Numbered from the stretch's first letter, positions 83-34,250 are shown. The stretch is 64,000 nt of DNA from Terriglobales bacterium (GCA_035638495.1 DASQZW010000251.1:33452-97451), one strand, 5' to 3'. The notes: generated by a model not told the origin, from the sequence alone. Numbers and translations are program-made.

Positions 83-332
83 CCCTCCGGACCCCGGGGG
101 CCTCCTCGCCCGCTAGGGGGAGGGATCTCTGTCTTAGCGACCCCCCCTCCGGGCCCTGGGGGGCCCTCCTCCCCCGCTGGGGGGGAGGGAGCTCTGTCTT
201 AGCGACCCCCCCTCCGGGCCCTGGGGCCCTCCTCCCCCGCTGGGGGGGAGGGAGCTCTGTCTCAGCGATCCCCCCTCCGGGCCCTGGGGGCCCTCCTCCC
301 CCGCTGGGGGGGAGGGAGCTCTGTCTCAGCGA
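83..332. repeat. Tandem array of four ~63-65 bp GC-rich hairpin units. Each unit = CCCCCCCTCCGG + GGGCCC-loop-GGGCCC hairpin + CCTCCCCC-GCT-GGGGGGGAGG hairpin + CTCTGTCTYAGCGA linker.
   Basis: Read directly. Units start at about 83 (degenerate), 140, 205 and 268. The same module occurs at 16368-16434, 16717-16783 and 26651-26713. The array ends 26 nt before the ATG at 358. Confidence 0.9.
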
Positions 333-357
333 CTGCGGCGGGTAGAGTGCAGCGGAC

Positions 358-1617
358 ATGCTGGATCTGCTGCTGCGAGATGCACGGGTGCTCGGAGCCG
401 AGGGCCTGCGCGACCTCGGCATACGCGAAGGCCGGCTGGTCGCGCCGGAGCCGGACGCGCGCGAAGTGCTCCACCTCGATGGTGCGCTCGTCACGCCGCC
501 GCTCGTGGAGCCGCACGTCCACCTCGATGCCGTGCTGACCGTCGGCGAACCGCGCCCCAACGTGTCCGGCTCGCTGTTCGAGGGCATCGCGATCTGGGCC
601 GAGCGGGTGAGGAGCCTGACCGTCGACGACGTGAAGGCGCGCGTCGGGCGCGTGCTGCGCTGGCAGCTCGCGTGCGGGGTCCAGCACGTGCGCAGCCACG
701 TCGACGTGTGCGACCCGGAGCTCCGGGCGCTGCGCGCCCTGGTCGAGCTGCGCGAGGAGATCGGCGGCCAGATGAACGTGCAGCTGGTGGCGTTCCCGCA
801 GCAGGGCATCCTCTCGTTCGAGGGCGGCGTCGATTTGATGCGGCGCGCGGTCGAGCTCGGCGCCGACGTGGTCGGCGGCATCCCGCACTTCGAGCTCACC
901 CGCGAGATGGGCGTCGAGTCCGTGAAGCTGGCCTTCGCGCTCGCGGCGGAGCACGGGCTGCGTGTCGACATCCACTGCGACGAGACGGACGACGACCACT
1001 CGCGGTTCGTCGAGGTGATGGCCGCCGAGACGATTCGATTGGGGATGGCGGGGCGGGTGACCGCCAGCCACACGACCGCGATGCATTCCTACAACAACGC
1101 GTACGCGTATCGCGTGATTCGGAACATCGCGCGGGCCGGGATGCACATGGTCACCAACCCGCTCGACAACTCGGTCCTGCAGGGCCGGTTCGACTCGTTC
1201 CCGGTGCGGCGCGGGCACACGCGCGTCAAGGACCTGATGGCAGCGGGGGTCAACGTCTGCATCGGCCACGACTCCGTGATGGATCCGTGGTACCCGCTCG
1301 GGCAGGGCGACCCGCTCCAGGCCGCCTTCGTGCTCGCCCACTACGGACACATGTCCGGCGCCGAGGAGCTGAAGCAGCTGGTCGAAATGATCACCGTGAA
1401 CCCGGCGCAGGCGCTCGGTCTGGAAGGCTACGGGCTGGCGGAGGGAGCGCCGGCGAGCCTGGTCGTGTTCGATGCGCCGAGCGAGATGGACGCGCTGCGC
1501 CTGCTGCCACGGCGCCGGCTGGTCCTGCGCGATGGCCGCGTGGTGGCCCGGACACGACCGGCCGAGACGACCGTTGTGTGGGACGGGCAGGAGGAGCTCG
1601 TCGACTTCCTGCGCTGA
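358..1617 (+). CDS. Cytosine deaminase-like metal-dependent amidohydrolase
   Basis: 419-aa ORF with an N-terminal HVHLD (HxH) metal motif, IHCDETDD and a later GHD. Layout is typical of CodA/AtzC-type deaminases. Confidence 0.8.
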   Translation: MLDLLLRDARVLGAEGLRDLGIREGRLVAPEPDAREVLHLDGALVTPPLVEPHVHLDAVLTVGEPRPNVSGSLFEGIAIWAERVRSLTVDDVKARVGRVLRWQLACGVQHVRSHVDVCDPELRALRALVELREEIGGQMNVQLVAFPQQGILSFEGGVDLMRRAVELGADVVGGIPHFELTREMGVESVKLAFALAAEHGLRVDIHCDETDDDHSRFVEVMAAETIRLGMAGRVTASHTTAMHSYNNAYAYRVIRNIARAGMHMVTNPLDNSVLQGRFDSFPVRRGHTRVKDLMAAGVNVCIGHDSVMDPWYPLGQGDPLQAAFVLAHYGHMSGAEELKQLVEMITVNPAQALGLEGYGLAEGAPASLVVFDAPSEMDALRLLPRRRLVLRDGRVVARTRPAETTVVWDGQEELVDFLR

Positions 1618-1678
1618 ACGTCGAACGCTCGCATCCGATCGAACCTGTTCAGCGAGCGAGTCCAGTACCTTTTGCGCC

Positions 1679-2722
<1,044 letters not shown>

Positions 2723-2725
2723 CGA

Positions 2726-3742: not shown

Positions 3743-3744
3743 CC

Positions 3745-4350: not shown

Positions 4351-4399
4351 CGGTTCCGGGCCGCGGCCGCCAGGAACACGACCGAGCGTGGCAGGGGGA

Positions 4400-4993: not shown

Positions 4994-5011
4994 CTGCGCC
5001 ACGGCCCCATG

Positions 5012-5653
5012 CTAGCCGGTCTCGGGCGCGACGGGACCCGGCCAGGTTCCCGCCCGTGTCGCCAGGGCGGCAGGCGACCTGCGCGACCCGCCGACCGCGG
5101 TGTCCAGCACGGCCACGCACACGTCGATGACGGTCTCCTTGGCCACGTCCTCGGCATCCGCCCACTCCAGCGCCATGACCTCGACGAACCGCACCCAGCT
5201 TCGGACCGCCAGGCGCATGAGGTGGTCATCGTCCGATGCGCGCATCCCGGCGAGCAGGGACTCCCAGACCGCCCGCCGCGTGGCTTCCGTGACCTCCGTG
5301 ACCTCCGGGTCGCATCCGATCCCGCCGCGCACGAAGGCCTGAGTCTTGTCCCGGTTGGCCCGGACGTGGTCCAGGTAGACGGAGAGGCTGCGGCGCACCT
5401 GCTCGGCCGGGGGCAGCGACGGGTCGGGTTGGATCAGCCGGCGCAGCTGGAGCGCCGCGGCCCGGACGCAGGCGACGTAGAAGTCGCGCTTGCTCGGGAA
5501 GTAGTGGTAGAGCAGGCCCTTCGACATGCCCGCCATCTGGGCGATCTCGCCGATCGAGATCTCGTCGTACGGCTTGGATCCGAAGAGGCGAAGCCCGAGG
5601 TCGAGGAGCTGCTCCCGGCGTTCCCCGACCGTGAGCCTGGCTTGCCCTGCCAC
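5012..5653 (-). CDS. TetR/AcrR family transcriptional regulator
   Basis: HTH signature ISIGEIAQMAGMSKGLLYHYFPSKRDFY. GTG start at 5653 chosen inside the long spurious ORF 5012..6361. Confidence 0.85.
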   Translation of the reverse strand: MAGQARLTVGERREQLLDLGLRLFGSKPYDEISIGEIAQMAGMSKGLLYHYFPSKRDFYVACVRAAALQLRRLIQPDPSLPPAEQVRRSLSVYLDHVRANRDKTQAFVRGGIGCDPEVTEVTEATRRAVWESLLAGMRASDDDHLMRLAVRSWVRFVEVMALEWADAEDVAKETVIDVCVAVLDTAVGGSRRSPAALATRAGTWPGPVAPETG

Positions 5654-5697
5654 GCGGGAAGCGTAGCGTCCGGTCCTCGCCCGCTCAACGCGAACCG

Positions 5698-7226
5698 CTA
5701 CACGGGCGGGACGCCGTGCTTGCGGTCGGGCGGGGCTTGCCTCCGGGTCGCGTAGGCGTTGAACCGGGCCACCAGCTGGTCGCGCAGCCGGTCCGGGTCG
5801 ACGACGTCGTCGACCACCAGGTTGGAGGCCAGCTTGTACAGGTCGACATCCTGCCGGTACTCCTCCTCGAGATCGTGCCGGATGGTCTCGCGCTCGTTGG
5901 GCGCCAGCCCGGCAAGCCGGTTGTAGAACACCGCGTTCACCGCCGGCTCCGGGCCCATCACCGCGATCTGCGCGGATGGCAGCGCCAGCACGCAGTCGCT
6001 GTCGAACGCGGGCCCCGCCATCGCGTACAGGCCCGCTCCATACGCCTTGCGCACGATGACCGAGACCTTGGGCACCGTCGCCTCGGCCACCGCGGTGATC
6101 ATCTTGGCGCCGTGCCGGATGATGCCGCGGCGCTCCACCTGCGTTCCGATCATGAATCCGGGCACGTCGGCCAGGAACAGCAGCGGGATGTTGAACGCGT
6201 CGCAGAGCCAGATGAAGCGTGCAGCCTTGTCGGAGCTGTCGATGAACAGGACCCCGCCTTTCTGCATCGGCTGGTTGGCAAGGATGCCGACCGCGCGGCC
6301 GTCGAGACGCGCGAACCCGGTCAGCAGCTCCCTGGCGAACAGCTTCTTCACCTCCAGCCACGAGCCCTCGTCCACCAGCGCCTCGATCACCTTGCGCATG
6401 TCGTAGCCGCGCTGGGCCTCGACGGGGACCAGCTCAGCGATGGGCCGGCCGCCCGGGCGCGGCGGCCTGCCCTGGGCCGCCGCGGGCGCCTCCGTGTGGT
6501 TCTGCGGGAAGTACGCGAAGTAGGCACGCGCCGTCTCGATCGCCTCGCGATCGTCCGCGACCAGGAAGTCGCCGCAGCCGCTCTCCGAGCAGTGCATGCG
6601 CGCCCCGCCGAGCTCTTCCAGGCCGACCCGCTCGCCGACCACCACTTCGACCATGCGTGGCGATCCCAGGTACATGGACGCGTTGCCGTCGACCATGATG
6701 ACCACGTCGCAGAACGCCGGGATGTACGCGCCGCCGGCCGCGGACGGACCGAACAGCAGGCAGACCTGGGGCACGCGGCCGGAGAGCTGGACCTGGTTGA
6801 AGAAGATGCGCCCGGCGTGGCGGCGTCCGGGGAACATGTCGATCTGGTCGGTGATCCGGGCGCCGGCCGAGTCGACCAGATAGAAGAGCGGCACGCGGAG
6901 CCGGCCGGCCGTCTCCTGGATGCGCACGATCTTCTCGACGGTGCGCGCGCCCCACGAGCCGGCCTTGACCGTGGGATCGTTTGCCATGACCGCCACCTGG
7001 CGACCGCCGATCATGCCCAGTCCGGTGACCACCCCGTCGGCGGGCAGATCGTCGGTCAGCGCGTTGGCGAAGAGGCCGTCCTCAACGAGGGAGGCTTCGT
7101 CGAGCAGGAGGTCGAGGCGCTCCCGGACGGTCATCTTCCCCTGCTCGCGCAGCTTGGCAGGTAGCGGACGCCGCCGCGAAGGGCTCGATCGCGCAGCTCC
7201 CGGTAGCGCTCCATGCCGTTGCTCAT
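5698..7226 (-). pseudogene. Acyl-CoA carboxylase carboxyltransferase (beta) subunit with an apparent 1-nt deletion near 7158
   Basis: The conserved body (MTVRERLDLLLDE... to the end) lies in one frame. The expected N-terminus, MSNGMERYRELRDRALRGGVRYL, is in another frame. It starts at an ATG (7226) that overlaps the crotonase stop as ATGA. Span length 1529 is 1 short of a multiple of 3. Confidence 0.8.
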
Positions 7227-15172: not shown

Positions 15173-16270
15173 ATGAGGCGAGGGTTCAGGCGCGGCCTGG
15201 CGATGGGCGCCCTGTCCGGCCTCGTCGCCGTGATGGTGGCAGAAGCCATGCGACCGCGCGGGGGCAGCACGCTGCTGCTCGACTGGGACGAGGTCACCCG
15301 ACTGGCGACCGCCGGCCTGCGCGAGGAGCGCGTGCCTCCGGACCGGCTGACCGCCATCACGACCGCGTACAACGGCCTGGCGGCCGGCCTCAGGGCGCCG
15401 CTGCTGGAGACCGTGGGCGGCCTGCCGGCCGGTGCCCGGCTGCCGGACTTTCAGGCTCTCGACCGGGCCAGCTGGCTGGATCTGAACGTCGGCATCCTGC
15501 GTCGCGTCATGGAGCCGCTGGCGGCCGTGACGCGCGTGCCGGAGTCCTGGCTCGCCGTGGCGGGCCGAGCGGGCCTGAACCGGTACGTCGCGCTCATGCT
15601 CGTGTACCTGGGCCGGCGCGTGCTCGGCCAGTTCGACCCGCAGCTGCTCGGACGGGAGCCGGTCCACCCGGCCCTGTACCTCGTCGAGCCCAACGTGGCG
15701 GCCTGGGAGGACCAGGCGAAGCTGGACGGCACGGACCTCCGGCGCTGGCTGATCCTGCATGAGATGACGCACGCATGGCAGTTCGCCGGCCACCCCTGGC
15801 TGCGCGACCACCTGGACAGCCAGATCGACGCGCTGGTCGGCCTGGCCGTCCGCACCGCGACAGGAGGCGGACTGCAGCGCCTCCGTGCGGTCGCCGGCGC
15901 TCCGTCGCAGTGGGACCTGGTGCGGCACATGCAGGCGACGATGTCGCTGGTGGAGGGGCACGGCAACCTCGTGATGAGCCTGGTGGGGCAGCGGGCGCTG
16001 CCCTCGTTCGCGCGACTGGACGCGGCCTACCGCCGGCGCAGCGGCGAGCGGGGCCCGCTCGAACGGCTGCTCTGGCGCGTGACCGGACTGGAGATGAAGA
16101 TGGAGCAGTACCGGGTGGGCGAGCGGTTCGCGCGGGACGTGCACGACCACTACGGCATGGAGGTGCTGAACCGCGCGTGGGACGGCCCCGAGGCGCTGCC
16201 GCGACCCGATGAGCTGAGCGCGCCCGACCGCTGGTACCGCCGCGTCGTCCGCGCAGGCGCGCCGCGGTGA
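15173..16270 (+). CDS. Zinc-dependent metalloprotease, DUF2342 / F420-biosynthesis-associated hydrolase family
   Basis: LHEMTHAWQF (HExxH) in the characteristic context. ATG 15173 inside ORF 15053..16270. Confidence 0.75.
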   Translation: MRRGFRRGLAMGALSGLVAVMVAEAMRPRGGSTLLLDWDEVTRLATAGLREERVPPDRLTAITTAYNGLAAGLRAPLLETVGGLPAGARLPDFQALDRASWLDLNVGILRRVMEPLAAVTRVPESWLAVAGRAGLNRYVALMLVYLGRRVLGQFDPQLLGREPVHPALYLVEPNVAAWEDQAKLDGTDLRRWLILHEMTHAWQFAGHPWLRDHLDSQIDALVGLAVRTATGGGLQRLRAVAGAPSQWDLVRHMQATMSLVEGHGNLVMSLVGQRALPSFARLDAAYRRRSGERGPLERLLWRVTGLEMKMEQYRVGERFARDVHDHYGMEVLNRAWDGPEALPRPDELSAPDRWYRRVVRAGAPR

Positions 16271-16434
16271 GAACGATGTCCCTCTCCCCTTGCGGGAGAG
16301 GTGGGTCCGCCAGGACCCGGAGGGGGGTTTGCTGAGACGAGCCGGCGATTCGGTGCCGTCCGTTCCGAGCGACCCCCCCTCCGGCCCGTGACCGGGCCAC
16401 CTCCCCCGCGAGGGGGGAGGGATCGTGTCTACAC
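16269..16434 (+). repeat. 166-bp structured GC-rich element, copy R1 (module A + module B)
   Basis: Identical to 16618-16783 except for a few substitutions. Contains at least four hairpins. Starts within the stop codon of the upstream gene. Confidence 0.95.
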
Positions 16435-16617
16435 GACGCGGCCCGCGATCGAGCGAAGCCTCCGGGCCGCCAGTCCGGACCTGACCGGCGACCAGCTCCG
16501 CGACAGCGTCACGTACGGATACTTCTCCTCGTGGGTGCTCGTCGCGGTCGTTCTGGCGGTGCTCGCGGTCGGCGCCGTGCAGCTGCCCACGAACGCTCTC
16601 GCGCTTGCGAGCCCGGC
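16435..16617 (+). pseudogene. Decayed partial duplicate of the membrane-protein gene at 16784-17249
   Basis: Aligns to 16866-17115 (TRPAIERSLRAASPDLTGDQLRDSV...LPTNALALASP) with scattered substitutions. About 70 nt are missing internally and about 80 nt at the 5' end. Confidence 0.85.
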
Positions 16618-17249
16618 GAGAACGATGTCCCTCCCCCCTTGCGGGGGAGGTGGGTCCGCCAGGACCCGGAGGGGGGTTTGCTGAGACGAGCCGGCGATTC
16701 GGTGCCGTCCGTTCCAAGCGACCCCCCCTCCGGCCCGTGACCGGGCCACCTCCCCCGCGAGGGGGGAGGGATCGCGTCCACACCGCCTGGACGCTGCCGC
16801 TGCGCGGGGCCACCGCCGGCTACCTGCTGCTCGCCGCGCTCGTGGAGCTGGTCACGAACGCCCTCTACGAGACGCGACCCGCGATCGAGCGAAGCCTCCG
16901 GGCGGCCAGTCCGGACCTGACCGGCGACCAGCTCCGCGACAGCGTCACGTTCGGATACGTCTCGTCGTGGGTGCTCGTCGCGGCCGTGGTCGCGGGCGCC
17001 GCGGTGCTGTCGCTCGGCGCCTACCGCGGCTGGCGGTGGGCGTTCTGGGTCAGTCTGGCGGTGCTCGCCGTCGGCGCCGTGCAGCTCCCCACGAACGCTC
17101 TCGCGCTTGCGAGCCCGGCCACACAGATCCAGCCGCCGGCGGCGATCGCCGTCGAACTGGGCTTCTCCCTCCTGGCGCTCGGCCTGCTCGTCTGGTCAAT
17201 TCTGGCCGCTGCCCGATACGGCCCCTGGGCGATGCGACGGCCCGGTTAG
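16605..17249 (+). CDS. Small polytopic membrane protein; 5' end undefined
   Basis: Hydrophobic segments YLLLAALVELV, WVLVAAVVAGAAVL, AFWVSLAVLAVGAV and LGFSLLALGLLVW. The only in-frame starts are TTG 16605 and GTG 16650 (both inside repeat R2) or GTG 16842 (which would cut the first helix). Confidence 0.5.
   Translation: MRARRERCPSPLAGEVGPPGPGGGFAETSRRFGAVRSKRPPLRPVTGPPPPRGGRDRVHTAWTLPLRGATAGYLLLAALVELVTNALYETRPAIERSLRAASPDLTGDQLRDSVTFGYVSSWVLVAAVVAGAAVLSLGAYRGWRWAFWVSLAVLAVGAVQLPTNALALASPATQIQPPAAIAVELGFSLLALGLLVWSILAAARYGPWAMRRPG
16618..16783 (+). repeat. 166-bp structured GC-rich element, copy R2
   Basis: Offset of exactly 349 bp from R1. Carries a compensatory T:A to C:G change in the first hairpin relative to R1. 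Confidence 0.95.
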
Positions 17250-23848: not shown

Positions 23849-23874
23849 ACCCTCCCCCTCACGCGGGGGAGGGT
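23849..23874. repeat. Solo hairpin ACCCTCCCCC-TCACGC-GGGGGAGGGT of the repeat family
   Basis: 10-bp perfect stem between convergent genes (esterase end 23807, helicase end 24106). Followed by a GGGGGAAGGGATG remnant. Confidence 0.8.
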
Positions 23875-24105: not shown

Positions 24106-26520
24106 CTACGTGCGCTTGATGACGTCGCGTTCCATGGCCTGCACCGCGCTGCGGATCGCGCCATGGAGGGGGAGCCTGGCCTGACGCAGCGCGAACTCGA
24201 GCTGCCGCAGCATCGAGTACAGGCCCTTCATCGCCTTGATCGCGTCGCCGATGTCGACGTTGGCCGGCAGTGGGATCGTGTCCATCGCCTCACCCGAAGC
24301 CCAGCGGTGCGCGAAGTCGATGTAGTCGTACGACGGCGGGCGCAGGTTGGGTTCGTCCAGGTCCTGCTCCAGGTCTGCGAAGCGGAAGTACAGGGCGCGC
24401 AGGAGCCGCGCCGTCTGGCCCACCGCCGGCGTCGGGTAGCGGCGCACCTGCCGGGGACCGCGGTCCCGACCGCGGTCCTCCGTGGCCAGCATGGCCAGCG
24501 CCGCGCACAGGTCCGCCGGCCCCAGCCCGTCCAGCCAGCCGTTCCACACGGCCTCGGTGACCAGGAGCGTGTTCTCGCCGTAGACCCGAGCCGCCAGCAG
24601 GCCCTTGTCGGTGGGCTTGTCATCCGCGAGGAACCCGGTCTCGGACAGGATCCGGCAGAGCCGGCGCAGCTTGCGCTGGTACTCGTCTGCCTGCTCCCTG
24701 ATCGCGCGCTCGCCGTCACGCAGCTCGCGCTCGAGCGCCCGGCGCTCCCCGTATGCCGCGAGGTGTTCGGTGAACCGGGGGCACTGCACCACCGGGAGCT
24801 TGCGCTGCCGCGCCTGCACCTGCTTGCGCTCCTCCTCCAGCTGGTGGAGCTGCCGCCCAGCCGCTCCGTGGGGCCGGCCCTTGAACCCGCCCCTGCCGCG
24901 GCCGCGGCGCGGCACCGGCACCGCCTCGCGGCGCAGCCGGCGGATCTCGATCCGGATCGCGCGGAGGCGGTCCTCGATCCTGAAGTACTCGCTCACGTCC
25001 TCCGGGCGGCAGCGCGTGCAGTCCCACGTCGCGTCGAGGTCGTGGAGCCGCGCCCGGATGTTCTCGAGCCGGTCGACCGTGTGGTCCGCGGCCAGGCGTT
25101 TCTGGAACTGGCCGAACGACCGCTCCATCAGCTCGTCGGCCTGCTCGGGCGTGTAGAGGCGGAGCAGGTTGAGCGCCATGTTGTAGCTGGGCAGGAACCG
25201 CGACTCGACCACGAGTCCCTCGCCCATCGCGACCTCGTAGATCGTGCCGATCTCGACGTCCGCCTCCTTGAGGATGACGCCGTGGCCAATCGTGTCGATG
25301 CCGCGCCGGCCGGCCCTGCCCATGAGCTGCGTCAGCTCGCCGGTGGTCAGCGTCGCGAAGTTGACGCCGTCGAACTTGGTGAAGGATGACACCACGACGG
25401 CCCTGGCGGGCATGTTGATCCCGAGCGACAGTGTCTCGGTAGCGAACACTACCTTGAGCAGCCCGGCCTGGAAGAGCTCCTCCACCAGCTCCTTGTGGTA
25501 GGGGAGCAGGCCGGCGTGGTGCACCGCCAGGCCACGCCGGAGCATGTCGGCGTCGGCCATCTGCTGGAACAGCGCCGCCTCGTCCGGGTCCGTCAGCGAG
25601 CGCAGGCGCTCGGCGGCCAGCTGATCGATCATGCGCTTCTCGCGGCCCGTCGTCAGGTCGAACTCGTGGAAGGCGCAGCGCTGCAGCGCCTCCCGGCAGC
25701 CCCGCCGCGAGAAGATGAAATAGATCGCGGGAACCATGTCCAGCCGGCGCAGCTCGCCGATGACGCGCAGCATGTCGTTGGACGGCAGGTGGCGGAACCC
25801 ACGCACGCGGAAGCTGGCCTCCTCCTCTTCGGCCGCGCGGGACCACGTCTCCTGGTCGATGCCGCCGTCCGGCGCGAACAGCCTGTGGAAGCGATTGCGC
25901 ATGGCGAGCCAGAGTCGGAGCTCAGTCGGTCGCTCCTCGTGGAAGACGGTGGCGACCGGCCCGCGGTTCTCGGACATCCAGCGCGCCAGCTCCGCGTAGT
26001 TGCCGATGGTGGCGGACAGCCCCACGAGCTTGATGTGGCTGGGCGCCTGGATGATGACCTCCTCCCAGACCGAGCCGCGGGGGAAGTCGTCGATGTAGTG
26101 GACCTCGTCCAGCACGACGTACCCGACCGGGTCGAGGCGGGGCAGGTCCTCGTAGATGACGTTGCGCAGGATCTCGGTCGTCATGACCACGATCGGCGCC
26201 TCGTCGTTGATGGTGTTCTCGCCGGTCACCAGGCCGATGTGCTCCTCGCCGAACTCGCGCTGGAAGTCGCGGTACTTCTGGTTGCTCAGCGCCTTGAGCG
26301 GCGTGGTGTAGATGACCTTGGTGCCCTCGCGCCGCGCCCGGAAGTTGCAGTAGTCGGCCACCACCGTCTTGCCGCTGGAGGTGGGCGCGCTCACGAGGAC
26401 GCCCCGGTGGGTGTCCAGCTTTTCGATCGCCTCGACCTGGAACGCGTCCAGCGGCCAGGGCCGGGTCGCGCGGAACTCGTCCAGGGAGGTGCGGGTCTCG
26501 GTCTCGATGGGAGTGATGCT
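24106..26520 (-). CDS. Ski2/HelY-like DEAD/DEAH-box helicase; start codon unresolved
   Basis: APTSSGKT (Walker A), LDEVHYI (DEVH) and LSATIGN motifs. There is no ATG/GTG/TTG between 26520 and the conserved PLDAFQ motif. The nearest in-frame starts (TTG 26727, ATG 26745) read through the repeat element. Confidence 0.85.
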   Translation of the reverse strand, partial: SITPIETETRTSLDEFRATRPWPLDAFQVEAIEKLDTHRGVLVSAPTSSGKTVVADYCNFRARREGTKVIYTTPLKALSNQKYRDFQREFGEEHIGLVTGENTINDEAPIVVMTTEILRNVIYEDLPRLDPVGYVVLDEVHYIDDFPRGSVWEEVIIQAPSHIKLVGLSATIGNYAELARWMSENRGPVATVFHEERPTELRLWLAMRNRFHRLFAPDGGIDQETWSRAAEEEEASFRVRGFRHLPSNDMLRVIGELRRLDMVPAIYFIFSRRGCREALQRCAFHEFDLTTGREKRMIDQLAAERLRSLTDPDEAALFQQMADADMLRRGLAVHHAGLLPYHKELVEELFQAGLLKVVFATETLSLGINMPARAVVVSSFTKFDGVNFATLTTGELTQLMGRAGRRGIDTIGHGVILKEADVEIGTIYEVAMGEGLVVESRFLPSYNMALNLLRLYTPEQADELMERSFGQFQKRLAADHTVDRLENIRARLHDLDATWDCTRCRPEDVSEYFRIEDRLRAIRIEIRRLRREAVPVPRRGRGRGGFKGRPHGAAGRQLHQLEEERKQVQARQRKLPVVQCPRFTEHLAAYGERRALERELRDGERAIREQADEYQRKLRRLCRILSETGFLADDKPTDKGLLAARVYGENTLLVTEAVWNGWLDGLGPADLCAALAMLATEDRGRDRGPRQVRRYPTPAVGQTARLLRALYFRFADLEQDLDEPNLRPPSYDYIDFAHRWASGEAMDTIPLPANVDIGDAIKAMKGLYSMLRQLEFALRQARLPLHGAIRSAVQAMERDVIKRT

Positions 26521-26545
26521 ACAAGGGCGCGCGCACGGGCCTGAC

Positions 26546-26713
26546 AGGTCCCTCCCCCTTCGCGGGGGAGGTGGGTCCCCGAAGGGACCCGGAGGGGGGT
26601 CGCTCGGAGAACCGAATCGGTGCGCCGAGTAAGGAGCGGGGTCTTGTCTTGGCGACCCCCCCCACCGGCCGCTGGGGCGGCCACCTCCCCCGCGACGGGG
26701 GAGGGACTCTGTG
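26546..26713 (+). repeat. Full-length structured GC-rich element, copy R3 (diverged)
   Basis: Same hairpin order as R1/R2 with different loops and covarying stems (GGGTCCC-CGAA-GGGACCC; GGCCGC-TGGG-GCGGCC). Fills the divergent helicase / CoA-transferase spacer. Confidence 0.9.
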
Positions 26714-26746
26714 GGGCGGGTCCCCAAGCGTACGCTAACGGGCATC

Positions 26747-27946
26747 GTGGGCCAGGACGAGTCGAACCCCGCCCCCCAGCCGCTGGCCGGCATCAGGGTG
26801 CTCGACCTCACGCACGCGCTCGCCGGACCGTACTGCACGATGCTGCTCGGCGACCTCGGGGCGGACGTGATCAAGGTGGAGGCCCCGGGCGACGGCGATC
26901 ACGCGCGCCGCTGGGGCCCGCCATTCGTCAACGGCGAGTCGAGCTACTTCCTCTCGGTCAACCGGAACAAGCGCAGCGTGGCCCTGGACCTGAAGCACGA
27001 GGCGGGCCTCCAGGCGGCGGTGGACCTGGCGCTCGCCAGTGACGTCCTGGTCGAGAACTTCCGTCCCGGGACTGCCGCCCGGCTCGGGCTCGGCTGGGAC
27101 GCGCTTCACGAGCGCCGGCCGCAGCTCGTGTACGCCTCGATCAGTGGATTCGGGCAGGGCCGGCCTCAGCTGGCCGGATATGACCAGATCGCCCAGGGCA
27201 CGTCCGGCCTGATGAGCATCACCGGCGAGCCCAAGGGCCAGCCGGTCAAGAGCGGCGTCCCGGTCGGGGACATCGTGGCCGGCATGTTCGCCGCCCACGC
27301 GATCCTGGCCGCCCTCGTGGAGCGGGCGACGTCGGGTTCCGGCCGGTACATCGACGTCGCGCTGAACGACAGCCTCCTGGCCATCCTCACATACCAGGCC
27401 GGGCGCTACTTCGCCACGGGGGCGCCGCCCGGCCGGGACGGCAACCACCACCCGACCGTCGCGCCGTACGGCACGTTCGCGACCAGGGACGGTCACGTGA
27501 ACCTGGCGGTCGGCTCGGACGAGCAGTACCGGCGTTTTTGCGAGACGCTGCAGGCGCCGGAGCTCGCCGGCGACCCGCGCTTCGCGACAAACGCCGACCG
27601 GCAGACGGCTCGGGCCGAGCTCGTGATCGAGATCGAGCGCCGGTTGACGCGGCGCACCACGGGCGAGTGGCTCGCGCGGATGGAGGCGGCGGGCATCCCG
27701 GCCGGCCCCATCCTCGACCTGGCAACCGCGTTCTCCGACCCCGTCGCGGTCGGGCGGGACATGCACGTCGAGGTCGAGCACCCGGTGGCGGGGCGGATCG
27801 GCCAGGTCGGAGCGCCATGGAAGCTGGATGGCCGGTCGGCTCCGATCCGGACGCCGCCACCGCTGCTGGGCCAGCACACGGCGGAGGTGCTGACCGACGT
27901 GCTGGGCTACACAGCGGACCAAATCGGGGCCGTCCGGCCGGACTGA
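26747..27946 (+). CDS. Family III CoA-transferase (CaiB/BaiF type)
   Basis: PLAGIRVLDLTHALAGPYCTMLLGDLGADVIKVE N-terminus. Start at GTG 26747, with an alternative at GTG 26711. Confidence 0.85.
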   Translation: MGQDESNPAPQPLAGIRVLDLTHALAGPYCTMLLGDLGADVIKVEAPGDGDHARRWGPPFVNGESSYFLSVNRNKRSVALDLKHEAGLQAAVDLALASDVLVENFRPGTAARLGLGWDALHERRPQLVYASISGFGQGRPQLAGYDQIAQGTSGLMSITGEPKGQPVKSGVPVGDIVAGMFAAHAILAALVERATSGSGRYIDVALNDSLLAILTYQAGRYFATGAPPGRDGNHHPTVAPYGTFATRDGHVNLAVGSDEQYRRFCETLQAPELAGDPRFATNADRQTARAELVIEIERRLTRRTTGEWLARMEAAGIPAGPILDLATAFSDPVAVGRDMHVEVEHPVAGRIGQVGAPWKLDGRSAPIRTPPPLLGQHTAEVLTDVLGYTADQIGAVRPD

Positions 27947-28168: not shown

Positions 28169-28227
28169 CCGGCGATCTCCGGCCGCACGCCAGCCGGGAT
28201 GAGAGCGCGAATGGAGGGGAAGCGTAG

Positions 28228-29949
28228 GTGAGCAACAGCGACTCGGAAAGGCAGTTCGACCGGTTCCTGGCCGAATGGTCGCGCCGGGACTTCCTGCGCG
28301 GCATGGGAGGCGCGCTCGCCTTCTCGGCGTTCCTGGCCGGCGGCGTCGAGTTCCTCGAGGCCTGCGGCGGCAACTCGGCGCAGAGCAGTACGCAGAACGC
28401 GGTGAAGGGCGGTCACATCGTCGAGGGTGTGATCTCGGACATCGGCAACGTCAACCCCATCTTCATCAACGACACCGCCAGTTCCACGATCGGCTACCTG
28501 GCGTACGCCCGGCTGATCACGGTTGACGCGTACACCGCCAACCTGCTGCCCGAGATGGCGACCGCCGTCCCCAAGGTCGAGGCCGACCAGGTGACGTACA
28601 AGGTCACCCTCAAGGACGGCATCAAGTGGTCGGACGGCCAGCCGATCACGGCCGACGACGTGGTCTTCACGTTCCAGCTGATGTACGACCCGCAGTACAA
28701 GGCGGTCACGTCCCGCTTCCGGTCACAGCTGGAGGCGCACCTCGAGAGCGTCACGGCGCCGGACCAGAAGACCGTCATCTTCAAGACCAAGGGCCCGTAC
28801 GCCCCGTTCATCATCAGCTTCCTGGGGATCGGGATCCTGCCCAAGCACGTGTGGTCCACGCTCGCGCCTGCGGCGATCAACTCGAGCCCGATGAACCAGG
28901 TGCCGACCGTGGTCAGCGGAGCCATGATCCCCGTCAAGTGGGACAAGGGCACCCAGTACGAGATGAAGCGCAACGACCTGTTCTTCAAGGGCAAGACCCA
29001 TCTCGACAGCTACTTCTTCAAGGTCGTGGCCGACGCCGTCCAGGTCGCCAACCAGCTCAAGACCGGCGAGATCGACGTCGGTTCCCCCGACCTCGGGCAG
29101 TGGGACTCCCTCGCCAGCGTCCAGAACATCGACCGCCTCAGCTACGTGGCGCCATCGTTCGACTACTACATCCACAACCTCGACCCGGCGAAGACGCCGA
29201 AGGCGGCCATCTTCGGCGACGTGCAGGTGCGCCGTGCGCTGCTGACCGCGCTCGACCGGAAGGCGGTCGCGGCGAAGGTGTACTTCGGCCTGGCGGCCCC
29301 GGCGGACTCGTCGGTGAGCGGCGCGCAGTGGGTCCACACCACCCCCAAGACGCAGTACCCCTTCAGCATCTCGAAGGCCGAGCAGATGCTCGACGCGGCG
29401 GGCTGGGTCAAGGGCTCCGACGGCGTCCGGGCCAAGAACGGCGTGCGCATGGAGTGGGAGCTCCGGACCAACACGGGCAACAAGGTCCGCGAGACCCTGA
29501 TCACGGTGCTCGCCGACCAGTGGAAGCAGATCGGCGCCAACGTCACCACCAACCCGGTGCAGTTCCCGCAGCTGGTCACGCAGCTCAGCCAGACGCGCGA
29601 GTTCGAGATGATCCTGATCGGCATCTCGGAGGGCCTCGACCCCGACACGACGCAGCTCTGGAGCTCGAAGTCCATCGGCGGCGGGGCGCTGAACGGCGCC
29701 GGCTACAAGAACTCGAAGGTCGACGACCTGCTCGACCAGGCGGTCGTGACCCTCGACCGTGAGAAGCGCAAGGGCCTGTACCAGCAGCTCCAGGAGATCC
29801 TCATGGAGGACCTGCCCGCGCCGCTGGTCACCTACCCCAAATCGGTGTGGGGCATCAGCAAGCGCGTCAAGAACTGGGGCGTCGGCCCCTGGAACGGCGC
29901 CTCGCCGCGGCCCTGGTTCAACACGGTCTACGTCACGGACGGCAAGTAG
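28228..29949 (+). CDS. ABC transporter substrate-binding protein, family 5 (peptide/nickel, DppA/OppA-like), TAT-lipoprotein
   Basis: SRRDFLRGMGG twin-arginine motif followed by LEACGG lipobox. Family 5 SBP body. Confidence 0.85.
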   Translation: MSNSDSERQFDRFLAEWSRRDFLRGMGGALAFSAFLAGGVEFLEACGGNSAQSSTQNAVKGGHIVEGVISDIGNVNPIFINDTASSTIGYLAYARLITVDAYTANLLPEMATAVPKVEADQVTYKVTLKDGIKWSDGQPITADDVVFTFQLMYDPQYKAVTSRFRSQLEAHLESVTAPDQKTVIFKTKGPYAPFIISFLGIGILPKHVWSTLAPAAINSSPMNQVPTVVSGAMIPVKWDKGTQYEMKRNDLFFKGKTHLDSYFFKVVADAVQVANQLKTGEIDVGSPDLGQWDSLASVQNIDRLSYVAPSFDYYIHNLDPAKTPKAAIFGDVQVRRALLTALDRKAVAAKVYFGLAAPADSSVSGAQWVHTTPKTQYPFSISKAEQMLDAAGWVKGSDGVRAKNGVRMEWELRTNTGNKVRETLITVLADQWKQIGANVTTNPVQFPQLVTQLSQTREFEMILIGISEGLDPDTTQLWSSKSIGGGALNGAGYKNSKVDDLLDQAVVTLDREKRKGLYQQLQEILMEDLPAPLVTYPKSVWGISKRVKNWGVGPWNGASPRPWFNTVYVTDGK

Positions 29950-29966
29950 AGCCGGTCTCGAGCACA

Positions 29967-31004
29967 ATGCTCGCCAAGTTCGTCCTGCGGAGGGCGCTGG
30001 CCGCGATCCCGGTCGTGGTCGGCGTCACCGTGATCACGTTCGTCCTGATGCACAGCACGGCCGGGGCCTACGTCCCCGGCCTTTCCCTCAACCCCAACCT
30101 GACGGCGGCGCAGGTCTCGCTGCTGCGCTCGCAGCTCGGCCTCGACCAGCCGCTCTGGATCCAGTACCTGGACTGGACCGGGGTGGCCTGGCTGATGCAG
30201 CACGCAGGTCTGGGCGGGCTGCTGGTCGGCGCCCACGACATCACGCCGGGAATGCTGGAGGGCAGCTTCGGCCAGTCGATGGTGGACGGCACGGCGGTGA
30301 GCAGCCAGGTCTTCGACCGCCTGCCCAACACCATCCTGCTCACGGTCACGGCGATCCTGATCGGCATCGTGCTGTCCATTCCGCTGGGGGTCATCGCCGC
30401 GACGCGGCGCGGCACGCGCACCGACCACGTCCTGACGGGCGTGTCGGTGGCGGGCGTCGCCGTTCCGCAGTTCTGGCTGGGACTGCTCCTGATCCTGCTC
30501 TTCTCGGTGCAGCTCCACGCCTGGGGTCTGCCGTTCCTGCCCTCGGGCGGCGTGATGACGCCGTTCACGGGCGGTGACATGATCGACCGGCTCGCGCACC
30601 TGCTCATGCCGGCCACCGTCCTTTCGTTCGTGTACCTCGCCATCTGGTCCCGCTTCACGCGGTCGAGCATGGTCGAGGTCCTCTCCCAGGACTACGTCCG
30701 CACAGCGCGCGCGAAGGGCATGGGGGACCGGCGGGTGCGGTACGTCCACGCGCTGCGCAACGCGATCATCCCGCTGGTGACCCTGGTCGGGCTCGAGCTG
30801 CCCGGCCTGGTCAGCGGCGCCCTGGTGGTCGAGGTGGTGTTCAGCTGGCCGGGCATCGGGCTGCTCGCCTACCAGCGCGCGCTGGCCTACGACTACACGA
30901 TGGTGCTCGGCATCGTCACCTTCGCGTCGATCCTGGTCGTCGCGGGCAACCTCATCGCGGACCTGATGTACGCGGTCCTCGACCCGAGGATCCGGCTCGC
31001 ATGA
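29967..31004 (+). CDS. ABC transporter permease (DppB/OppB-like)
   Basis: N-terminus MLAKFVLRRALAAIPVV. YVRTARAKG motif in the EAA loop region. Confidence 0.85.
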   Translation: MLAKFVLRRALAAIPVVVGVTVITFVLMHSTAGAYVPGLSLNPNLTAAQVSLLRSQLGLDQPLWIQYLDWTGVAWLMQHAGLGGLLVGAHDITPGMLEGSFGQSMVDGTAVSSQVFDRLPNTILLTVTAILIGIVLSIPLGVIAATRRGTRTDHVLTGVSVAGVAVPQFWLGLLLILLFSVQLHAWGLPFLPSGGVMTPFTGGDMIDRLAHLLMPATVLSFVYLAIWSRFTRSSMVEVLSQDYVRTARAKGMGDRRVRYVHALRNAIIPLVTLVGLELPGLVSGALVVEVVFSWPGIGLLAYQRALAYDYTMVLGIVTFASILVVAGNLIADLMYAVLDPRIRLA

Positions 31005-31924
31005 TCGGCCAGGGAACCGTCGAGGAGCTCCAGCTCGCCGGCGCCGAATTGGCCGGAATGGTCGGGCGTCCCGCCCAGAGCTACTGGTCGGAGTCGGTCG
31101 AGCGCCTGCGCGCCAACCACATCGGGATGGCCGCCGGCTACCTGATCCTGTTCCTGGCGGTGGTCGCCGTCATGGCTCCCCTCGCCTCGCAGTTCGTCAC
31201 CCACTACGACCCGACGAAGCAGGACCTCTACAGCCAGTTCCTGGGGCCGGGCCGCCAGCACTGGCTCGGCGCGGACGAGACCGGGCGCGACACGTTCACC
31301 CGGCTCGTCTGGGGGGCACGCGTCTCGCTGGGCGTCGGCTTCCTGACGGTCGGCATGCAGATCGTGGTCGGCGGAGGGGTCGGTCTCCTCGCCGGCTTCT
31401 TCGGCGGCTGGATCGACAACCTGCTCATGCGCATCGTCGACATGGTGCTGGCCATCCCGGCCATCTTCCTCTTCATCCTGATGAGCATCCTGTTCACGCC
31501 GAACACCCTGACGCTCTCGATGATCATCGCCTCGGTGGGATGGGGCGGCGTGGCGAGGCTCGTGCGGGGCGAGACCCTGTCCGTGCGCGGCCGTGACTTC
31601 ATGCTGGCGACGCGCTCACTGGGGGCGTCCAACCTGCGGCTGATGCTGCGGCACCTCCTGCCGAACGTCCTGCCCGTGATGATCGTGGCCGCGAGCCTGG
31701 GCGTCGGGGCCATCATCCTGGCGGAGGCGGCGCTCGACTTCCTCGGGTTCGGCATCCACCCGCCCACGGCGAGTTGGGGAAACATGCTGTCGAACGCGCA
31801 GACCTACTTCGCCCACTCGATCTGGCTCGTCATCTTTCCCGGGATCATGATCTTCGTCACCGTCCTCGCCGCGAACCTGTTCGGCAACGCGGTGCGTGAC
31901 GCGTTCGACCCGAGGTTGCGGTGA
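31001..31924 (+). CDS. ABC transporter permease (DppC/OppC-like)
   Basis: ATGA overlap with the upstream gene. HWLGADETGRD motif. The C-terminal 40 codons are nearly identical to 36070-36193. Confidence 0.85.
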   Translation: MIGQGTVEELQLAGAELAGMVGRPAQSYWSESVERLRANHIGMAAGYLILFLAVVAVMAPLASQFVTHYDPTKQDLYSQFLGPGRQHWLGADETGRDTFTRLVWGARVSLGVGFLTVGMQIVVGGGVGLLAGFFGGWIDNLLMRIVDMVLAIPAIFLFILMSILFTPNTLTLSMIIASVGWGGVARLVRGETLSVRGRDFMLATRSLGASNLRLMLRHLLPNVLPVMIVAASLGVGAIILAEAALDFLGFGIHPPTASWGNMLSNAQTYFAHSIWLVIFPGIMIFVTVLAANLFGNAVRDAFDPRLR

Positions 31925-31950
31925 CCGTTCGCCGACATCCCCCACCCCGA

Positions 31951-31972
31951 CCCTCCCCCCGGCGGGGGAGGG
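31951..31972. repeat. Solo hairpin CCCTCCCCC-CGGC-GGGGGAGGG of the repeat family (terminator-like)
   Basis: 9-bp stem between convergent genes (31924 end, 31986 end). Confidence 0.8.
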
Positions 31973-31985
31973 CGGCGGGGCGGAC

Positions 31986-32276: not shown

Positions 32277-32298
32277 GATGGGGCCGTCCTGCGGGATT

Positions 32299-32328
32299 TT
32301 GACGAGCCGTCGAGACAGGTTCCATAAT
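32299..32328 (+). promoter_or_regulatory. Sigma-70-like promoter TTGACG-N18-CATAAT for ABC operon 2
   Basis: Same hexamers as 28140-28168, 69 nt upstream of ATG 32397. Confidence 0.55.
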
Positions 32329-32396
32329 GCCGGGGATTCCCGCCTGATCGTTGGGCGGACGTTGGTTGATCATGGGGGAGGGGACTGGAGGATCCA

Positions 32397-34139
32397 ATGG
32401 GGAGCAGCACGCCCGACGGTTTCGACAACTTTGAGAGGTTTCTGAAGGAGTGGTCCCGTAGGGACTTCCTTCGGGGGATGGGAGGCGCCGCGGCGTTCGC
32501 GGCCTTCACGGCCGGCGGTCTGGAGTTCCTGGAGGCCTGCGGGAACAGCGGCTCCTCGGCGAGCCCGACCACGCCGACCGGCAAGAAGGGCGGCCACCTG
32601 GTCGAGGGCAACTTCAGCGACATCTCGAAGTTGAACTCGGTCCTCTCGTCCGACACCGCCAGCGGCCAGGTCATCTCGATGCTGTTCGAGGGACTGCTGG
32701 TGAGCAAGCCGAACGGCGACCTGGTGCCGGGCCTGGCGTCGGCGATGCCGCAGGTCTCGTCCGACGGCACGACCTACACGTTCAAGCTCCGGTCCAACCT
32801 GAAGTGGTCGGACGGCCAGCCGCTGACGAGCGACGACGTCCTGTTCACGTTCAACATGATGTTCGCGCCCGACTACAAGGACGTGAACTCGCCGCGGCGC
32901 TCCGACCTCGAGCTCAACATGCAGAGCATCGCCGCGCCGGACCCGCAGACGATCGTCTTCAAGACGAAGACCGTCTGGGCGCCGTTCCTCGCCCTGCACG
33001 CGCAGCGCGAGATCATGCCCAAGCACGTGCTCGGCAGCCTGGCGCCGAAGGACATCAACACCGCCGACTTCAACAGTGGCCCGAGCGCCACGAACGGCGC
33101 GTTCAAGTTCGTCCGCTGGGACAAGGGCCAGCAGGTGGTGCTCGGCCGGAACGAGAACTACTGGCGCGGCCAGACCTTCCTCGACCAGTACGTCTACAAG
33201 GTGCTGCCCGACTCGGTGACGGTGGCCAACCAGCTCAAGACCGGCGAGCTCGACTTCGGGCCGGTGGACCCTTCTCTGTGGGACAGCCTGGCGACGGTCG
33301 ACACGATCAACCGGGTGGAGCCGTTCGGCGTGCCCACGTTCACCTTCTACGCCTACAACCTCGACCCGGCAAAGCCGGCGGGCAAGCTGTTCGCCGACAA
33401 GGCGGTGCGGCAGGCGCTCCTCCTCGCCCTGGACCGGAAGGCGATGGCGGACCGCGTCTACTTCGGTCAGGCCACGGTCGCCGACTCGGTCGAGCCGCCC
33501 ATCTCCTGGGCGCACAGCAACGCCAAGCCGCAGTTCGGCTTCGACAAGAGCAAGGCGGAGTCGATGCTCGACGCGGCCGGCTGGGCCAAGGGCGCGGACG
33601 GCATCCGCGCCAAGGGCGGCGTGCCGCTGAAGTTCGCGATGATCACCAACCAGGGCAACAAGCAGCGCGAGAGCCTGCTCCAGATCATGCAGCAGTCCTG
33701 GTCGGACATCGGCGTCTCCGCGACGCCCCAGCTCATCCAGTTCCCGCAGCTCGTCACCCAGATCACGAACCAGCGCACCTTCGACGTCTTCCTGGTCGGC
33801 TTCAACTTCACCCAGGACCCCGACGAGTCGCAGCTCTTCGCCAGCACGTCCAGCAACCCCGGCGGGTTCAACGGCTTCCTCTTCAAGAACCCGCAGGTCG
33901 ACCAGGTGCTGAGCCAGGCGGCCAGCACCCTGGACCAGGGCAAGCGCAAGCAGCTGTACGCGCAGTTCCAGGACCTGATGGCCGACCAGCAGCCGGCGCC
34001 GATCCTCGTGTTCAACAAGGGCCTCTGGGCCGTCAGCAAGCGCGTGCTGGGACTCACGAACAGCGTCTTCGGCCCGTTCAACCAGTACGGCTCGCGGTCC
34101 CTGTTCTTCAAGGACGTGTCGGTCAGCGACCAGAAGTGA
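32397..34139 (+). CDS. ABC transporter substrate-binding protein, family 5, TAT-lipoprotein (paralogue of 28228..29949)
   Basis: SRRDFLRGMGG + LEACGN. Alignable along its whole length with the first SBP. Confidence 0.85.
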   Translation: MGSSTPDGFDNFERFLKEWSRRDFLRGMGGAAAFAAFTAGGLEFLEACGNSGSSASPTTPTGKKGGHLVEGNFSDISKLNSVLSSDTASGQVISMLFEGLLVSKPNGDLVPGLASAMPQVSSDGTTYTFKLRSNLKWSDGQPLTSDDVLFTFNMMFAPDYKDVNSPRRSDLELNMQSIAAPDPQTIVFKTKTVWAPFLALHAQREIMPKHVLGSLAPKDINTADFNSGPSATNGAFKFVRWDKGQQVVLGRNENYWRGQTFLDQYVYKVLPDSVTVANQLKTGELDFGPVDPSLWDSLATVDTINRVEPFGVPTFTFYAYNLDPAKPAGKLFADKAVRQALLLALDRKAMADRVYFGQATVADSVEPPISWAHSNAKPQFGFDKSKAESMLDAAGWAKGADGIRAKGGVPLKFAMITNQGNKQRESLLQIMQQSWSDIGVSATPQLIQFPQLVTQITNQRTFDVFLVGFNFTQDPDESQLFASTSSNPGGFNGFLFKNPQVDQVLSQAASTLDQGKRKQLYAQFQDLMADQQPAPILVFNKGLWAVSKRVLGLTNSVFGPFNQYGSRSLFFKDVSVSDQK

Positions 34140-34153
34140 TCTGCAGTGACCGG

Positions 34154-34250
34154 ACCCTCCCCCGTGACCGGGGGAGGGTGATCTTCCTTCCGGTGGTGCC
34201 GGAGTGGGCGACCCCCACCCCCTCCCCCGTCCCCCGGGGCGGAGGTGGGG
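34154..34250. repeat. Repeat-family hairpin ACCCTCCCCCG-TGAC-CGGGGGAGGGT plus a degenerate second module, inside the SBP-permease spacer
   Basis: 11-bp perfect stem at 34154-34179. GGCGACCCCCACCCCCTCCCCC...GGAGGTGGGG remnant at 34207-34250. Confidence 0.8.

Follow-up and report, generated by a model that had tools for sequence, protein, structure and literature searches.

The closest described relatives of the elements considered here are the BoxC repeats of Escherichia coli, which are the same as the PIT elements (Hoyne et al., 2000) and as TM_ECO (Holder et al., 2015) (PMC4666352). A typical TM_ECO copy reads CCCTCTCCC-TGT-GGGAGAGGG-CCG-GGGTGAGGG; copies are intergenic and lie on both strands, inverted pairs account for 5 of the 23 sites in MG1655, and the number of copies varies greatly between close relatives, the sites lying in unusually variable regions (PMC4666352). 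As a single strand, TM_ECO forms a very stable triplex by nuclear magnetic resonance (NMR) and circular dichroism, with 18 imino signals and a Tm of 70-82 C, and the motif stalls polymerases in vitro (PMC4666352). Here we analyse a family of repeats in a stretch of 64,000 nucleotides from a Terriglobales bacterium (GCA_035638495.1, DASQZW010000251.1:33452-97451; hereafter the window), the first 34 kb of which hold nine perfect and four degenerate copies of one 45-48-nt module. The copies are arranged as three 166-170-nt inverted doublets (R1, R2 and R3), a four-unit tandem array, a short single module, a decayed doublet and a bare hairpin (Table 1). A preliminary description of this DNA had placed GC-rich hairpin building blocks at seven loci, all of which were recovered at the positions given.

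On its G-rich strand, read 5' to 3', the module consists of a pyrimidine arm (CCTCCCCC), a loop of 4-6 nt, a purine arm (GGGGGAGG), one T, a GC mini-hairpin of 6-7 bp and, finally, GGAGGGGG, a mirrored version of the hairpin 1 purine arm. With a pyrimidine arm, the purine arm that pairs with it in Watson-Crick fashion and a mirrored, antiparallel second purine arm all on one strand, the layout is that of a potential class II purine-motif intrastrand DNA triplex. Two inverted modules around a core of 45-55 nt make up the 166-170-nt elements, and modules set head to tail make up the array. The order of parts proposed earlier, namely hairpins 1 and 2 (H1 and H2), a G-tract, the core, a C-tract and hairpins 3 and 4 (H3 and H4), is correct; the G-rich segment, which had been taken as the partner of the C-rich segment in the other arm, is not only that but also the mirror of the hairpin 1 purine arm. 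At a probability of roughly 70%, we propose that the elements are non-coding repeats resembling repetitive extragenic palindromes (REPs) and bacterial interspersed mosaic elements (BIMEs), whose basic 45-48-nt module has been selected to fold as single-stranded DNA.

Shuffled controls rule out an origin by chance or low complexity. The pattern CCTCCCC-N3-12-GGGGAGG occurs 11 times in the window against 0.01 expected from shuffles, and GGGGGAGG-N10-25-CCGGAGGGGGG seven times against an expectation of 0. A rule scan, in which an 8-bp perfect pyrimidine/purine hairpin had to be followed by a 1-30-nt connector and by a third arm obeying the triad rule described below, returned nine perfect class II modules in the window and none in 50 shuffled windows. 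The G+C content of the window is about 70%, and neither the pattern counts nor the rule scan found a similar module between 36 and 64 kb.

The comparative evidence comes from one search, with GGGGGAGG-N10-25-CCGGAGGGGGG, a shorter form of GGGGGAGG-N10-25-CCGGAGGGGGGG, through 185,579 species-representative genomes; it yielded at least 116 loci. Statistics on fetched loci refer to the 116 matches listed (0.84 Mb), and loci and contigs other than the window carry L numbers. One version of both purine arms was fixed by the pattern, and other modules within those loci served for the tests. Of 258 asymmetric hairpin views with arms that the pattern had not fixed, 78 had a mirror-consistent arm downstream, compared with 21 for a downstream direct copy, a mean of 12.9 for random permutations and 5 for an upstream mirror arm. 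About 20 different purine arms were found, each with its own mirror. Examples, given as purine arm and third arm, are GGGAGAGG and GGAGAGGG in Caulobacter; GGGGGAAG and either GAAGGGGG or GATGGGGG in the alphaproteobacterial loci L087 and L033; GGAGAAGG and GGATGAGG in L048; GAGGGGGG and GGGGGGAG; GGGAAGGG and GGGATGGG; AGAGAGGG and GGGTGAGA in L084; GGAGAGGG and GGGTGAGG in L062 and L074; and, within one and the same SAR324 genome, GGAGGGGGG and GGGGGGAGG as well as GGAGAAGGG and GGGATGAGG.

When third arms were aligned on their G positions only, the base opposite duplex A-T pairs was A in 77 cases, T in 42, C in 2 and G in 2 (A or T in 119 of 123). The purine motif allows both A and T opposite A-T pairs, while T is not tolerated by the other motif. 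Since a T in the third arm puts an A in the complementary strand and thereby breaks a pyrimidine-motif triplex, the G-rich strand is the constrained one. Furthermore, in 15 inverted doublets composed of two differing modules each third arm tracks its own hairpin, so that pairing at long range between one arm's G-tract and the other arm's C-tract cannot be the sole constraint. Taken together, a third arm that tracks its hairpin and a triad rule that includes T for A are comparative evidence for a conserved triplex fold on the G-rich DNA strand.

The hairpin bridging the purine arm and the third arm, a region outside the fixed arms of the search pattern, covaries as well: pairing is kept across 62 distinct versions, and the longest perfect stem has a mean length of 5.1 bp, compared with 3.2 bp for shuffled sequences (no more than 3.5 in 500 shuffles). 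As a rule the hairpin takes up exactly the whole connector, abutting the third arm without a spacer, and begins after a single T in 44 of the 62 versions. A GNA triloop closed by C-G occurs in 55 of 94 modules and G-N-N-A loops (GCCA, GTCA) occur in the lineage of the window, both being classic extra-stable DNA mini-hairpin loops (PMC3201870, PMC13037366). Within the window, the compensatory changes reported for H1 (CCTCTCCC/GGGAGAGG in R1 versus CCTCCCCC/GGGGGAGG in R2) and for H3 (GGCCCG, GGCCGC or GGGCCC, each with its complement) are present in the sequence. The difference reported for H2 of R3 is likewise real, yet it is an extension of the stem by one pair and not a compensatory swap. 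The earlier suggestion that selection acts on structure rather than on sequence is thus borne out by the covarying stems.

The resemblance to BoxC/PIT/TM_ECO extends to the succession of pyrimidine arm, loop, purine arm, turn and second purine arm along a single strand, to G/C-rich arms of 8-9 nt, to intergenic placement on both strands with frequent close inverted pairs, to an abundance that differs sharply between close relatives and to a link with local rearrangement. All nine perfect window modules have the arm order and triads of the triplex motif, and their placement is of the BoxC type, being intergenic, without strand preference and often in inverted pairs. Hairpin 1 of the window (CCCTCCCCC/GGGGGAGGG) fits that of TM_ECO (CCCTCNCCC/GGGNGAGGG), and H1 of R1 is the E. 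coli stem itself (CCCTCTCCC/GGGAGAGG). Nevertheless, no window module matches the full TM_ECO pattern, CCCTCNCCC-N3-6-GGGNGAGGG-N3-GGGNGAGGG: the third arm reads GGAGGGGGG or GGTGGGGG and the second loop measures 15-19 nt in eight of the nine modules, and the remaining one, at 31940-31972, has the arm GGGTGGGG and is alone in having a second turn of just 3 nt. The elements also differ from TM_ECO in that the second turn is a covarying GC hairpin of 13-19 nt instead of 3 nt (TTA or CCG), in the window third arm (GGAGGGGG versus GGGTGAGGG in TM_ECO), in the doublets with a 45-55-nt core and a conserved CGAWTCGGTGC, in the tandem arrays and in their hosts, which comprise a high-GC soil lineage (the nearest listed copies are in metagenome-assembled genomes (MAGs) of Candidatus Dormiibacterota) and many other phyla. 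By architecture, though not by sequence pattern, they would therefore be classed as a hairpin-bridged variant of BoxC/PIT/TM_ECO. Published triplex searches were confined to loops of 1-6 nt (ITxF) or 0-10 nt (Hoyne) (PMC4666352), which put the bridged class beyond their reach, and a full-text literature search with the literal arm sequences returned irrelevant matches only. To all appearances, neither the bridged architecture nor its spread over the phyla nor the three-way covariation has been described before; the statement that the elements belong to no named family accordingly holds for the bridged variant, while the class itself had already been described (PMC4666352).

Two further systems invite comparison. 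The CIR repeats of Caulobacter and Brucella (Chen and Shapiro, 2003) are, as summarised in PMC2229807, about 110 nt long, with two linked arms and GANTC in the terminal loop, and are kept in alphaproteobacteria. Compared with that description only, the cores of R1, R2 and R3 are similar in carrying GATTC or GAATC at the predicted central loop, whereas the Caulobacter doublets L003 and L107 lack GANTC. H-DNA shares the mirror-symmetric purine sequence and identical base triads, but the present modules have three arms on one strand separated by loops and would need single-stranded DNA, not a supercoiled duplex tract.

Application of the rule scan to the fetched loci gave 148 class II modules (0-1 in shuffles), and the same rule recovered the published E. 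coli TM_ECO sequences as a positive control. Modules are present in at least nine phyla. Among the matches listed, near-full-length relatives of R1/R2 occur only in Candidatus Dormiibacterota MAGs (L070, L103, L046, L081 and L098). The single arm is widespread in alphaproteobacteria (Caulobacter, Devosia, Bradyrhizobium, Sphingomonas and many others) and also occurs in Thermaceae/Deinococcota, SAR324, Planctomycetota, Acidimicrobiia, Chloroflexota, Gemmatimonadota and 'Deltaproteobacteria'. Most matches also have the pyrimidine arm and loop, which the search pattern did not include. Bridged modules outnumber short-loop ones by 124 to 33 in this sample, a ratio biased by a pattern that favoured bridged modules. 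Where modules are neighbours, 32 doublets have their third arms inward, 22 have hairpin 1 inward and 11 pairs are in tandem. A window protein was found identical on tropical-soil metagenome contigs.

Several lineages have arrangements of their own. Caulobacter doublets of about 130 nt (L003 1226-1354, L107 1280-1410, L017 and L084) combine GGGGGAGG-type and GGGAGAGG-type modules with a conserved linker starting ACGTTTTCAGCTTCCG, their outer end usually lying 2-12 nt past a stop codon. In a Chloroflexus MAG (L095), short-loop modules stand in dense tandem at 820-960, 5560-5700 and 5940-6490, with 10 perfect modules in 6.5 kb, and a SAR324 MAG (L025, L037, L079) has its own variant in which hairpin 1 is lengthened by CAC/GTG.

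If the module is indeed selected to fold as single-stranded DNA, the first two arms would pair as a Watson-Crick hairpin and the mini-hairpin would turn the chain, bringing the mirror arm antiparallel to the purine arm in the major groove and giving G.G-C triads plus A.A-T or T.A-T. Such a triplex could form whenever replication, repair or transcription leaves the G-rich strand briefly unpaired, and the folded strand might then serve as the substrate of a copying or mobilising process, either a structure-specific enzyme or polymerase template switching. The main consequence would be local rearrangement, as a by-product. Transcripts would contain the ordinary hairpins as well, whatever the orientation of the element, and these may, as a secondary effect, protect or end mRNAs where this is of use.

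Copy number and position differ between close relatives. On contigs encoding an identical amidohydrolase, the array has three units in L127 (2290-2470) and four in L128 (2225-2475) and in the window. At 16270-17249 the window order is R1, S', R2, 80 nt and S, S' being the partial gene copy listed in Table 1. In L120 and L123 (about 88% identity), a single element lies between the Zincin_2 stop and the membrane-protein gene without any duplication, the element being a truncated right arm only in L120 and internally deleted in L123; the 96%-identical strain L126 is without both the membrane-protein gene and the elements. The R1-S'-R2-S arrangement reads as a tandem duplication, and template switching at a stalled structure would produce an S'-R2 junction exactly at the left end of the element, which is where the junction is found; alternatively, a separate insertion may account for it. 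On this comparison of relatives the R1/R2 locus is a rearrangement hot spot. R3, in turn, is absent from the same spacer in the syntenic contigs L132, L137 and L188, and a search for an empty site or target duplication by way of CoA-transferase relatives found these three spacers without R3 too diverged to set boundaries. In L130 (2457-2497) and L131 (2765-2880), which encode an 84%-identical CoA-transferase, a module or a short-loop doublet follows directly after its stop, unlike in the window, where no module does so. Overall, nine perfect modules in these 64 kb compare with four in 264 kb of contigs from relatives.

Several points weigh against selection for a single-stranded fold. The tested modules are not fully independent of the ascertainment, the loci having been fetched with a pattern that fixed both purine arms. 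For TM_ECO, in vivo footprinting with dimethyl sulphate (DMS) gave no triplex protection and the duplex wins once the complementary strand is supplied (PMC4666352), so that folding in cells is unproven; nor was a promoter, terminator or replication effect of TM_ECO found (PMC4666352). As single strands, R2 (-65.8 kcal/mol, z = -7.8) and R3 (-69.3 kcal/mol, z = -7.9) are predicted to fold much more stably than shuffled sequences, but this computation covers Watson-Crick pairing only. In the left module of R1, H1 is CCTCTCCC/GGGAGAGG, the E. coli-type stem, but the third arm is still GGAGGGGG, leaving one mismatched triad. In the searches set out above and below, no mobilising enzyme came to light, nor did any target-site duplication or clean empty site. 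Finally, modules directly after stop codons, after a capsid gene and after a binding-protein gene also fit a role at the RNA level.

That last point leads to the possibility that the elements act mainly as RNA, their stable GC hairpins in 3' untranslated or intra-operon regions stopping 3' exonucleases or transcription, as those of E. coli REPs do, and so setting the relative expression of neighbouring genes, which we regard as unlikely. Modules are mostly downstream of genes: by crude open reading frame (ORF) calls on the fetched loci, with which a second, noisy window-based method disagreed, 27 lie in convergent, 19 in co-directional and 1 in divergent spacers, and many start 2-20 nt past a stop codon, as R1 does. 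The copy at 34155 follows the binding-protein gene of an ATP-binding cassette (ABC) operon, two of the three terminator-like sites between 16 and 35 kb are lone hairpins, and a module is kept between the major capsid and head-tail connector genes of structural clusters that resemble those of Caulobacter-like phages or gene-transfer agents (GTAs). An RNA role nonetheless leaves both the mirror third arm and the preference for A or T over C or G opposite A-T pairs unexplained, and purine-motif triplexes are stated not to form in RNA (Holder et al., PMC4666352). Co-directional spacers contain both orientations (11 modules in one, 8 in the other), two of six window loci lie in divergent promoter regions, and E. 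coli PIT elements are without terminator activity (PMC4666352). The Rfam search recommended in the preliminary description gave no match at the gathering score in the window or in 17 loci of diverse taxa. The suggestion of a structured ncRNA family is likewise disfavoured by the occurrence of both orientations, by T opposite A-T pairs and by loops typical of DNA mini-hairpins. A REP-like effect on mRNA 3' ends is plausible as a secondary role, though not as the source of the triplex constraint. The phage or GTA-like clusters mentioned above are on L210-L215 and L218 (e.g. L212 4100-4236), related 6-9-kb contigs classed as viral, and in them the G-rich strand is the sense strand.

The mode of copying may also be sought in known mobile repeats. 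In line with the earlier comparison with REPs and BIMEs, the elements are short GC-rich palindromic extragenic units occurring singly, as inverted doublets with a spacer resembling REPINs (paired REPs) and in BIME-like arrays; they are mostly at gene 3' ends and have a lineage-specific copy number, and REPs, too, are thought to be active as folded single-stranded DNA. That they are genuine REP/REPIN elements, multiplied by a REP-associated tyrosine transposase (RAYT) whose gene lies elsewhere in the genome, would be in keeping with this arrangement, with the uneven density among relatives and with selection on such a fold, RAYTs acting on folded single-stranded DNA. This explanation is nevertheless rather improbable: the ends of the window modules read GATGTCCCTCC, ACAGGTCCCTCC and GGGAGGGATCG and carry no GTAG/CGTC tag, the third arm obeys triplex rules, and the same architecture recurs in at least nine phyla, whereas REPs are normally species-specific. 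A tblastn search with E. coli RayT against the window and L001-L208 gave a spurious antisense match only, which is a weak test as the gene need not adjoin the copies; the match, in L081, is weak and lies antisense inside an opposite-strand ORF of 390 aa that is apparently the real gene. Even less credible is a classical MITE (miniature inverted-repeat transposable element) that descends from an insertion sequence, whose transposase would move it by way of terminal inverted repeats. Size fits, the long terminal inverted repeats span nearly the entire element, R3 is missing from the same spacer in relatives, and bacterial MITEs such as Correia/NEMIS, ERIC and RUP are similarly 100-200 nt long, nearly all self-complementary, multi-copy and intergenic, and may overlap gene ends. 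However, no target-site duplication is visible at R1, R2, R3 or L070, the cores differ between copies, and the supposed terminal repeats also stand alone and in tandem, which makes them autonomous units. As in the preliminary description, no transposase was noticed in the window, in which only the ten genes flanking the elements were annotated, nor was one noticed in the loci, and no insertion sequence was noticed either, no systematic search having been made for them; blastn of R2 against plasmid and phage collections gave no match, although its low-complexity filter may hide short ones.

The G-runs had also been thought capable of forming G-quadruplexes. Long G-runs are indeed present, and such a structure is, according to Holder et al., conceivable in principle for TM_ECO (PMC4666352); that a quadruplex is the selected structure is nevertheless highly improbable, as each module has just two long G-runs, a fully complementary C-arm is always there, the mirror-constrained A and T positions are not required by a quadruplex, and TM_ECO gave a triplex and not a quadruplex by NMR (PMC4666352). 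The quadruplex idea, like the proposed pairing of Shine-Dalgarno-like with anti-Shine-Dalgarno-like segments, is unneeded and does not explain the mirror rule.

A bolder extension of selection for single-stranded folding is that hairpin-bridged triplex modules constitute a cross-phylum tertiary motif of single-stranded DNA which selection maintains for its folding as a triplex in vivo and which conserved machinery reads; we offer it tentatively, the odds being against it. Were it true, the machinery would be either a mobilising enzyme specific for the structure or a factor of replication or repair, and the recurrence of the motif from Dormiibacterota to Caulobacter, Deinococcota, Chloroflexota and SAR324 would be explained. 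It would also provide a natural DNA triplex backed by evolutionary three-way covariation, of which we know of no earlier example. The BoxC/PIT/TM repeats have been on record for some 30 years; to our knowledge, they have been assigned no function in that time, and no study has demonstrated the triplex in cells. The much larger bridged class occurs in genetically tractable Caulobacter and at conserved positions such as the capsid-connector spacer, which makes deletion, probing and mobilome experiments feasible. For annotation, the family accounts for the recurrent GC-rich intergenic 'mosaic hairpins' of soil MAGs, and its modules can be flagged as hot spots of duplication, deletion and assembly breaks.

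Table 1. Repeat elements and associated features of the window (positions counted from its first nucleotide; strand refers to the G-rich class II strand of the repeats, or for S' to its own orientation, and 'perfect' to the rule scan).
Feature	Position	Strand	Modules	Remarks
Tandem array	83-333	minus	83-128 (degenerate); 143-188, 208-251, 271-315 (perfect)	4 head-to-tail units, period 63-65, 92% matches
R1, full-length inverted doublet (repeat analysis)	16265-16434	left module plus, right module minus	16281-16326; 16375-16420 (perfect)	core 16327-16374, with CGATTCGGTGC at 16346-16356; delimited as 16270-16434 in the annotation of parts
S'	16435-16613	plus		about 90% identical to the 5' portion of the membrane-protein gene that follows (16864-17117, 66-nt gap)
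R2, full-length inverted doublet (repeat analysis)	16614-16783	left module plus, right module minus	16630-16675 (perfect); 16724-16769 (perfect)	H1 CCTCCCCC/GGGGGAGG; core with CGATTCGGTGC at 16695-16705; delimited as 16614-16785 in the annotation of parts
Bare hairpin 1	23850-23873	none		CCCTCCCCC-TCACGC-GGGGGAGGG, then TGGTTTGTGG; between convergent genes
R3, full-length inverted doublet, diverged core	26546-26713	left module plus, right module minus	26551-26598 (perfect); 26659-26704 (perfect)	core with CGAATCGGTGC at 26613-26623
Single short-loop BoxC-like module	31940-31972	minus	31940-31972 (perfect)	CCCTCCCC-CGCCGG-GGGGAGGG-TCG-GGGTGGGG; between convergent genes
Decayed doublet without core	34155-34250	none		H1 (34155-34178), CCGG-TGGTG-CCGG hairpin, GGAGTGGG, CGACCCCCACC, degenerate H4

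The gene context given earlier for these features (gene 5' ends, convergent spacers and an operon) is essentially correct. Its claim that the copies are confined to intergenic DNA stands for most of them, the exceptions being the left end of R1, which overlaps the TGA stop (16268-16270) of the Zincin_2 gene, the right end of R3, which takes in the CoA-transferase GTG start annotated at 26711, and an ORF that runs through R2. The array unit equals the right arm of the long elements, with small loop differences between units, and the array lies between the divergent starts of a cytosine/purine permease gene (minus strand, about 46) and the amidohydrolase gene (plus strand, 358). A CRISPR reading of the array is ruled out, the entire 63-65-nt unit being repeated, as is a protein-coding reading, the unit length being no fixed multiple of three.

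R1 and R2, which are 96% identical, follow the Zincin_2 stop and precede the small membrane-protein gene, with S' between them; R1, R2 and R3 are each an imperfect inverted repeat with arms of 56-83 nt. The cores of R1/R2 and of R3 are otherwise diverged, yet share CGATTCGGTGC or CGAATCGGTGC, which contains GANTC at the predicted central loop, and the L070 core is without this motif. The membrane-protein reading frame (16605-17249) traverses all of R2, with candidate starts inside it at ATG 16623 and GTG 16737, and in L120 the frame opened by an ATG right behind the Zincin_2 stop continues through H3 as well as H4; the start codon and N-terminus may thus be supplied by the element to the membrane protein, whose ORF at 16782-17249 has no Pfam match.

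R3 lies between divergent gene starts, and the third arm of its right module, GGTGGGGG, includes a T.A-T triad. The 3' arm of its H4 (GGGGGAGGG) is 5-6 nt upstream of GTG 26711, a Shine-Dalgarno-like position, yet is paired within H4 (26695-26713). The neighbouring helicase gene (24106-26394; DEAD, DSHCT and MTR4-like stalk domains) encodes 762 aa by the public gene call on L001, and the longer ORFs at 24106-26544 and 24106-26874, which extend into R3, are probably not translated.

At the bare hairpin, no convincing third arm was found on either strand. The two remaining segments named in the preliminary description, 31951-31972 and 34154-34250, do belong to the family, with the amendment that the former is part of a complete minus-strand module (31940-31972) and the latter is decayed. 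The decayed doublet lies between the solute-binding-protein gene (end 34139) and a permease gene of an ABC operon. This operon is one of two paralogous peptide-type ABC transporter operons (28228-31924 and 32397-36200), which lie about 4.2-4.3 kb apart and share 71-79% nucleotide identity (families D1-D5, D8, D12 and D14), and the second alone carries an element between its binding-protein and permease genes.

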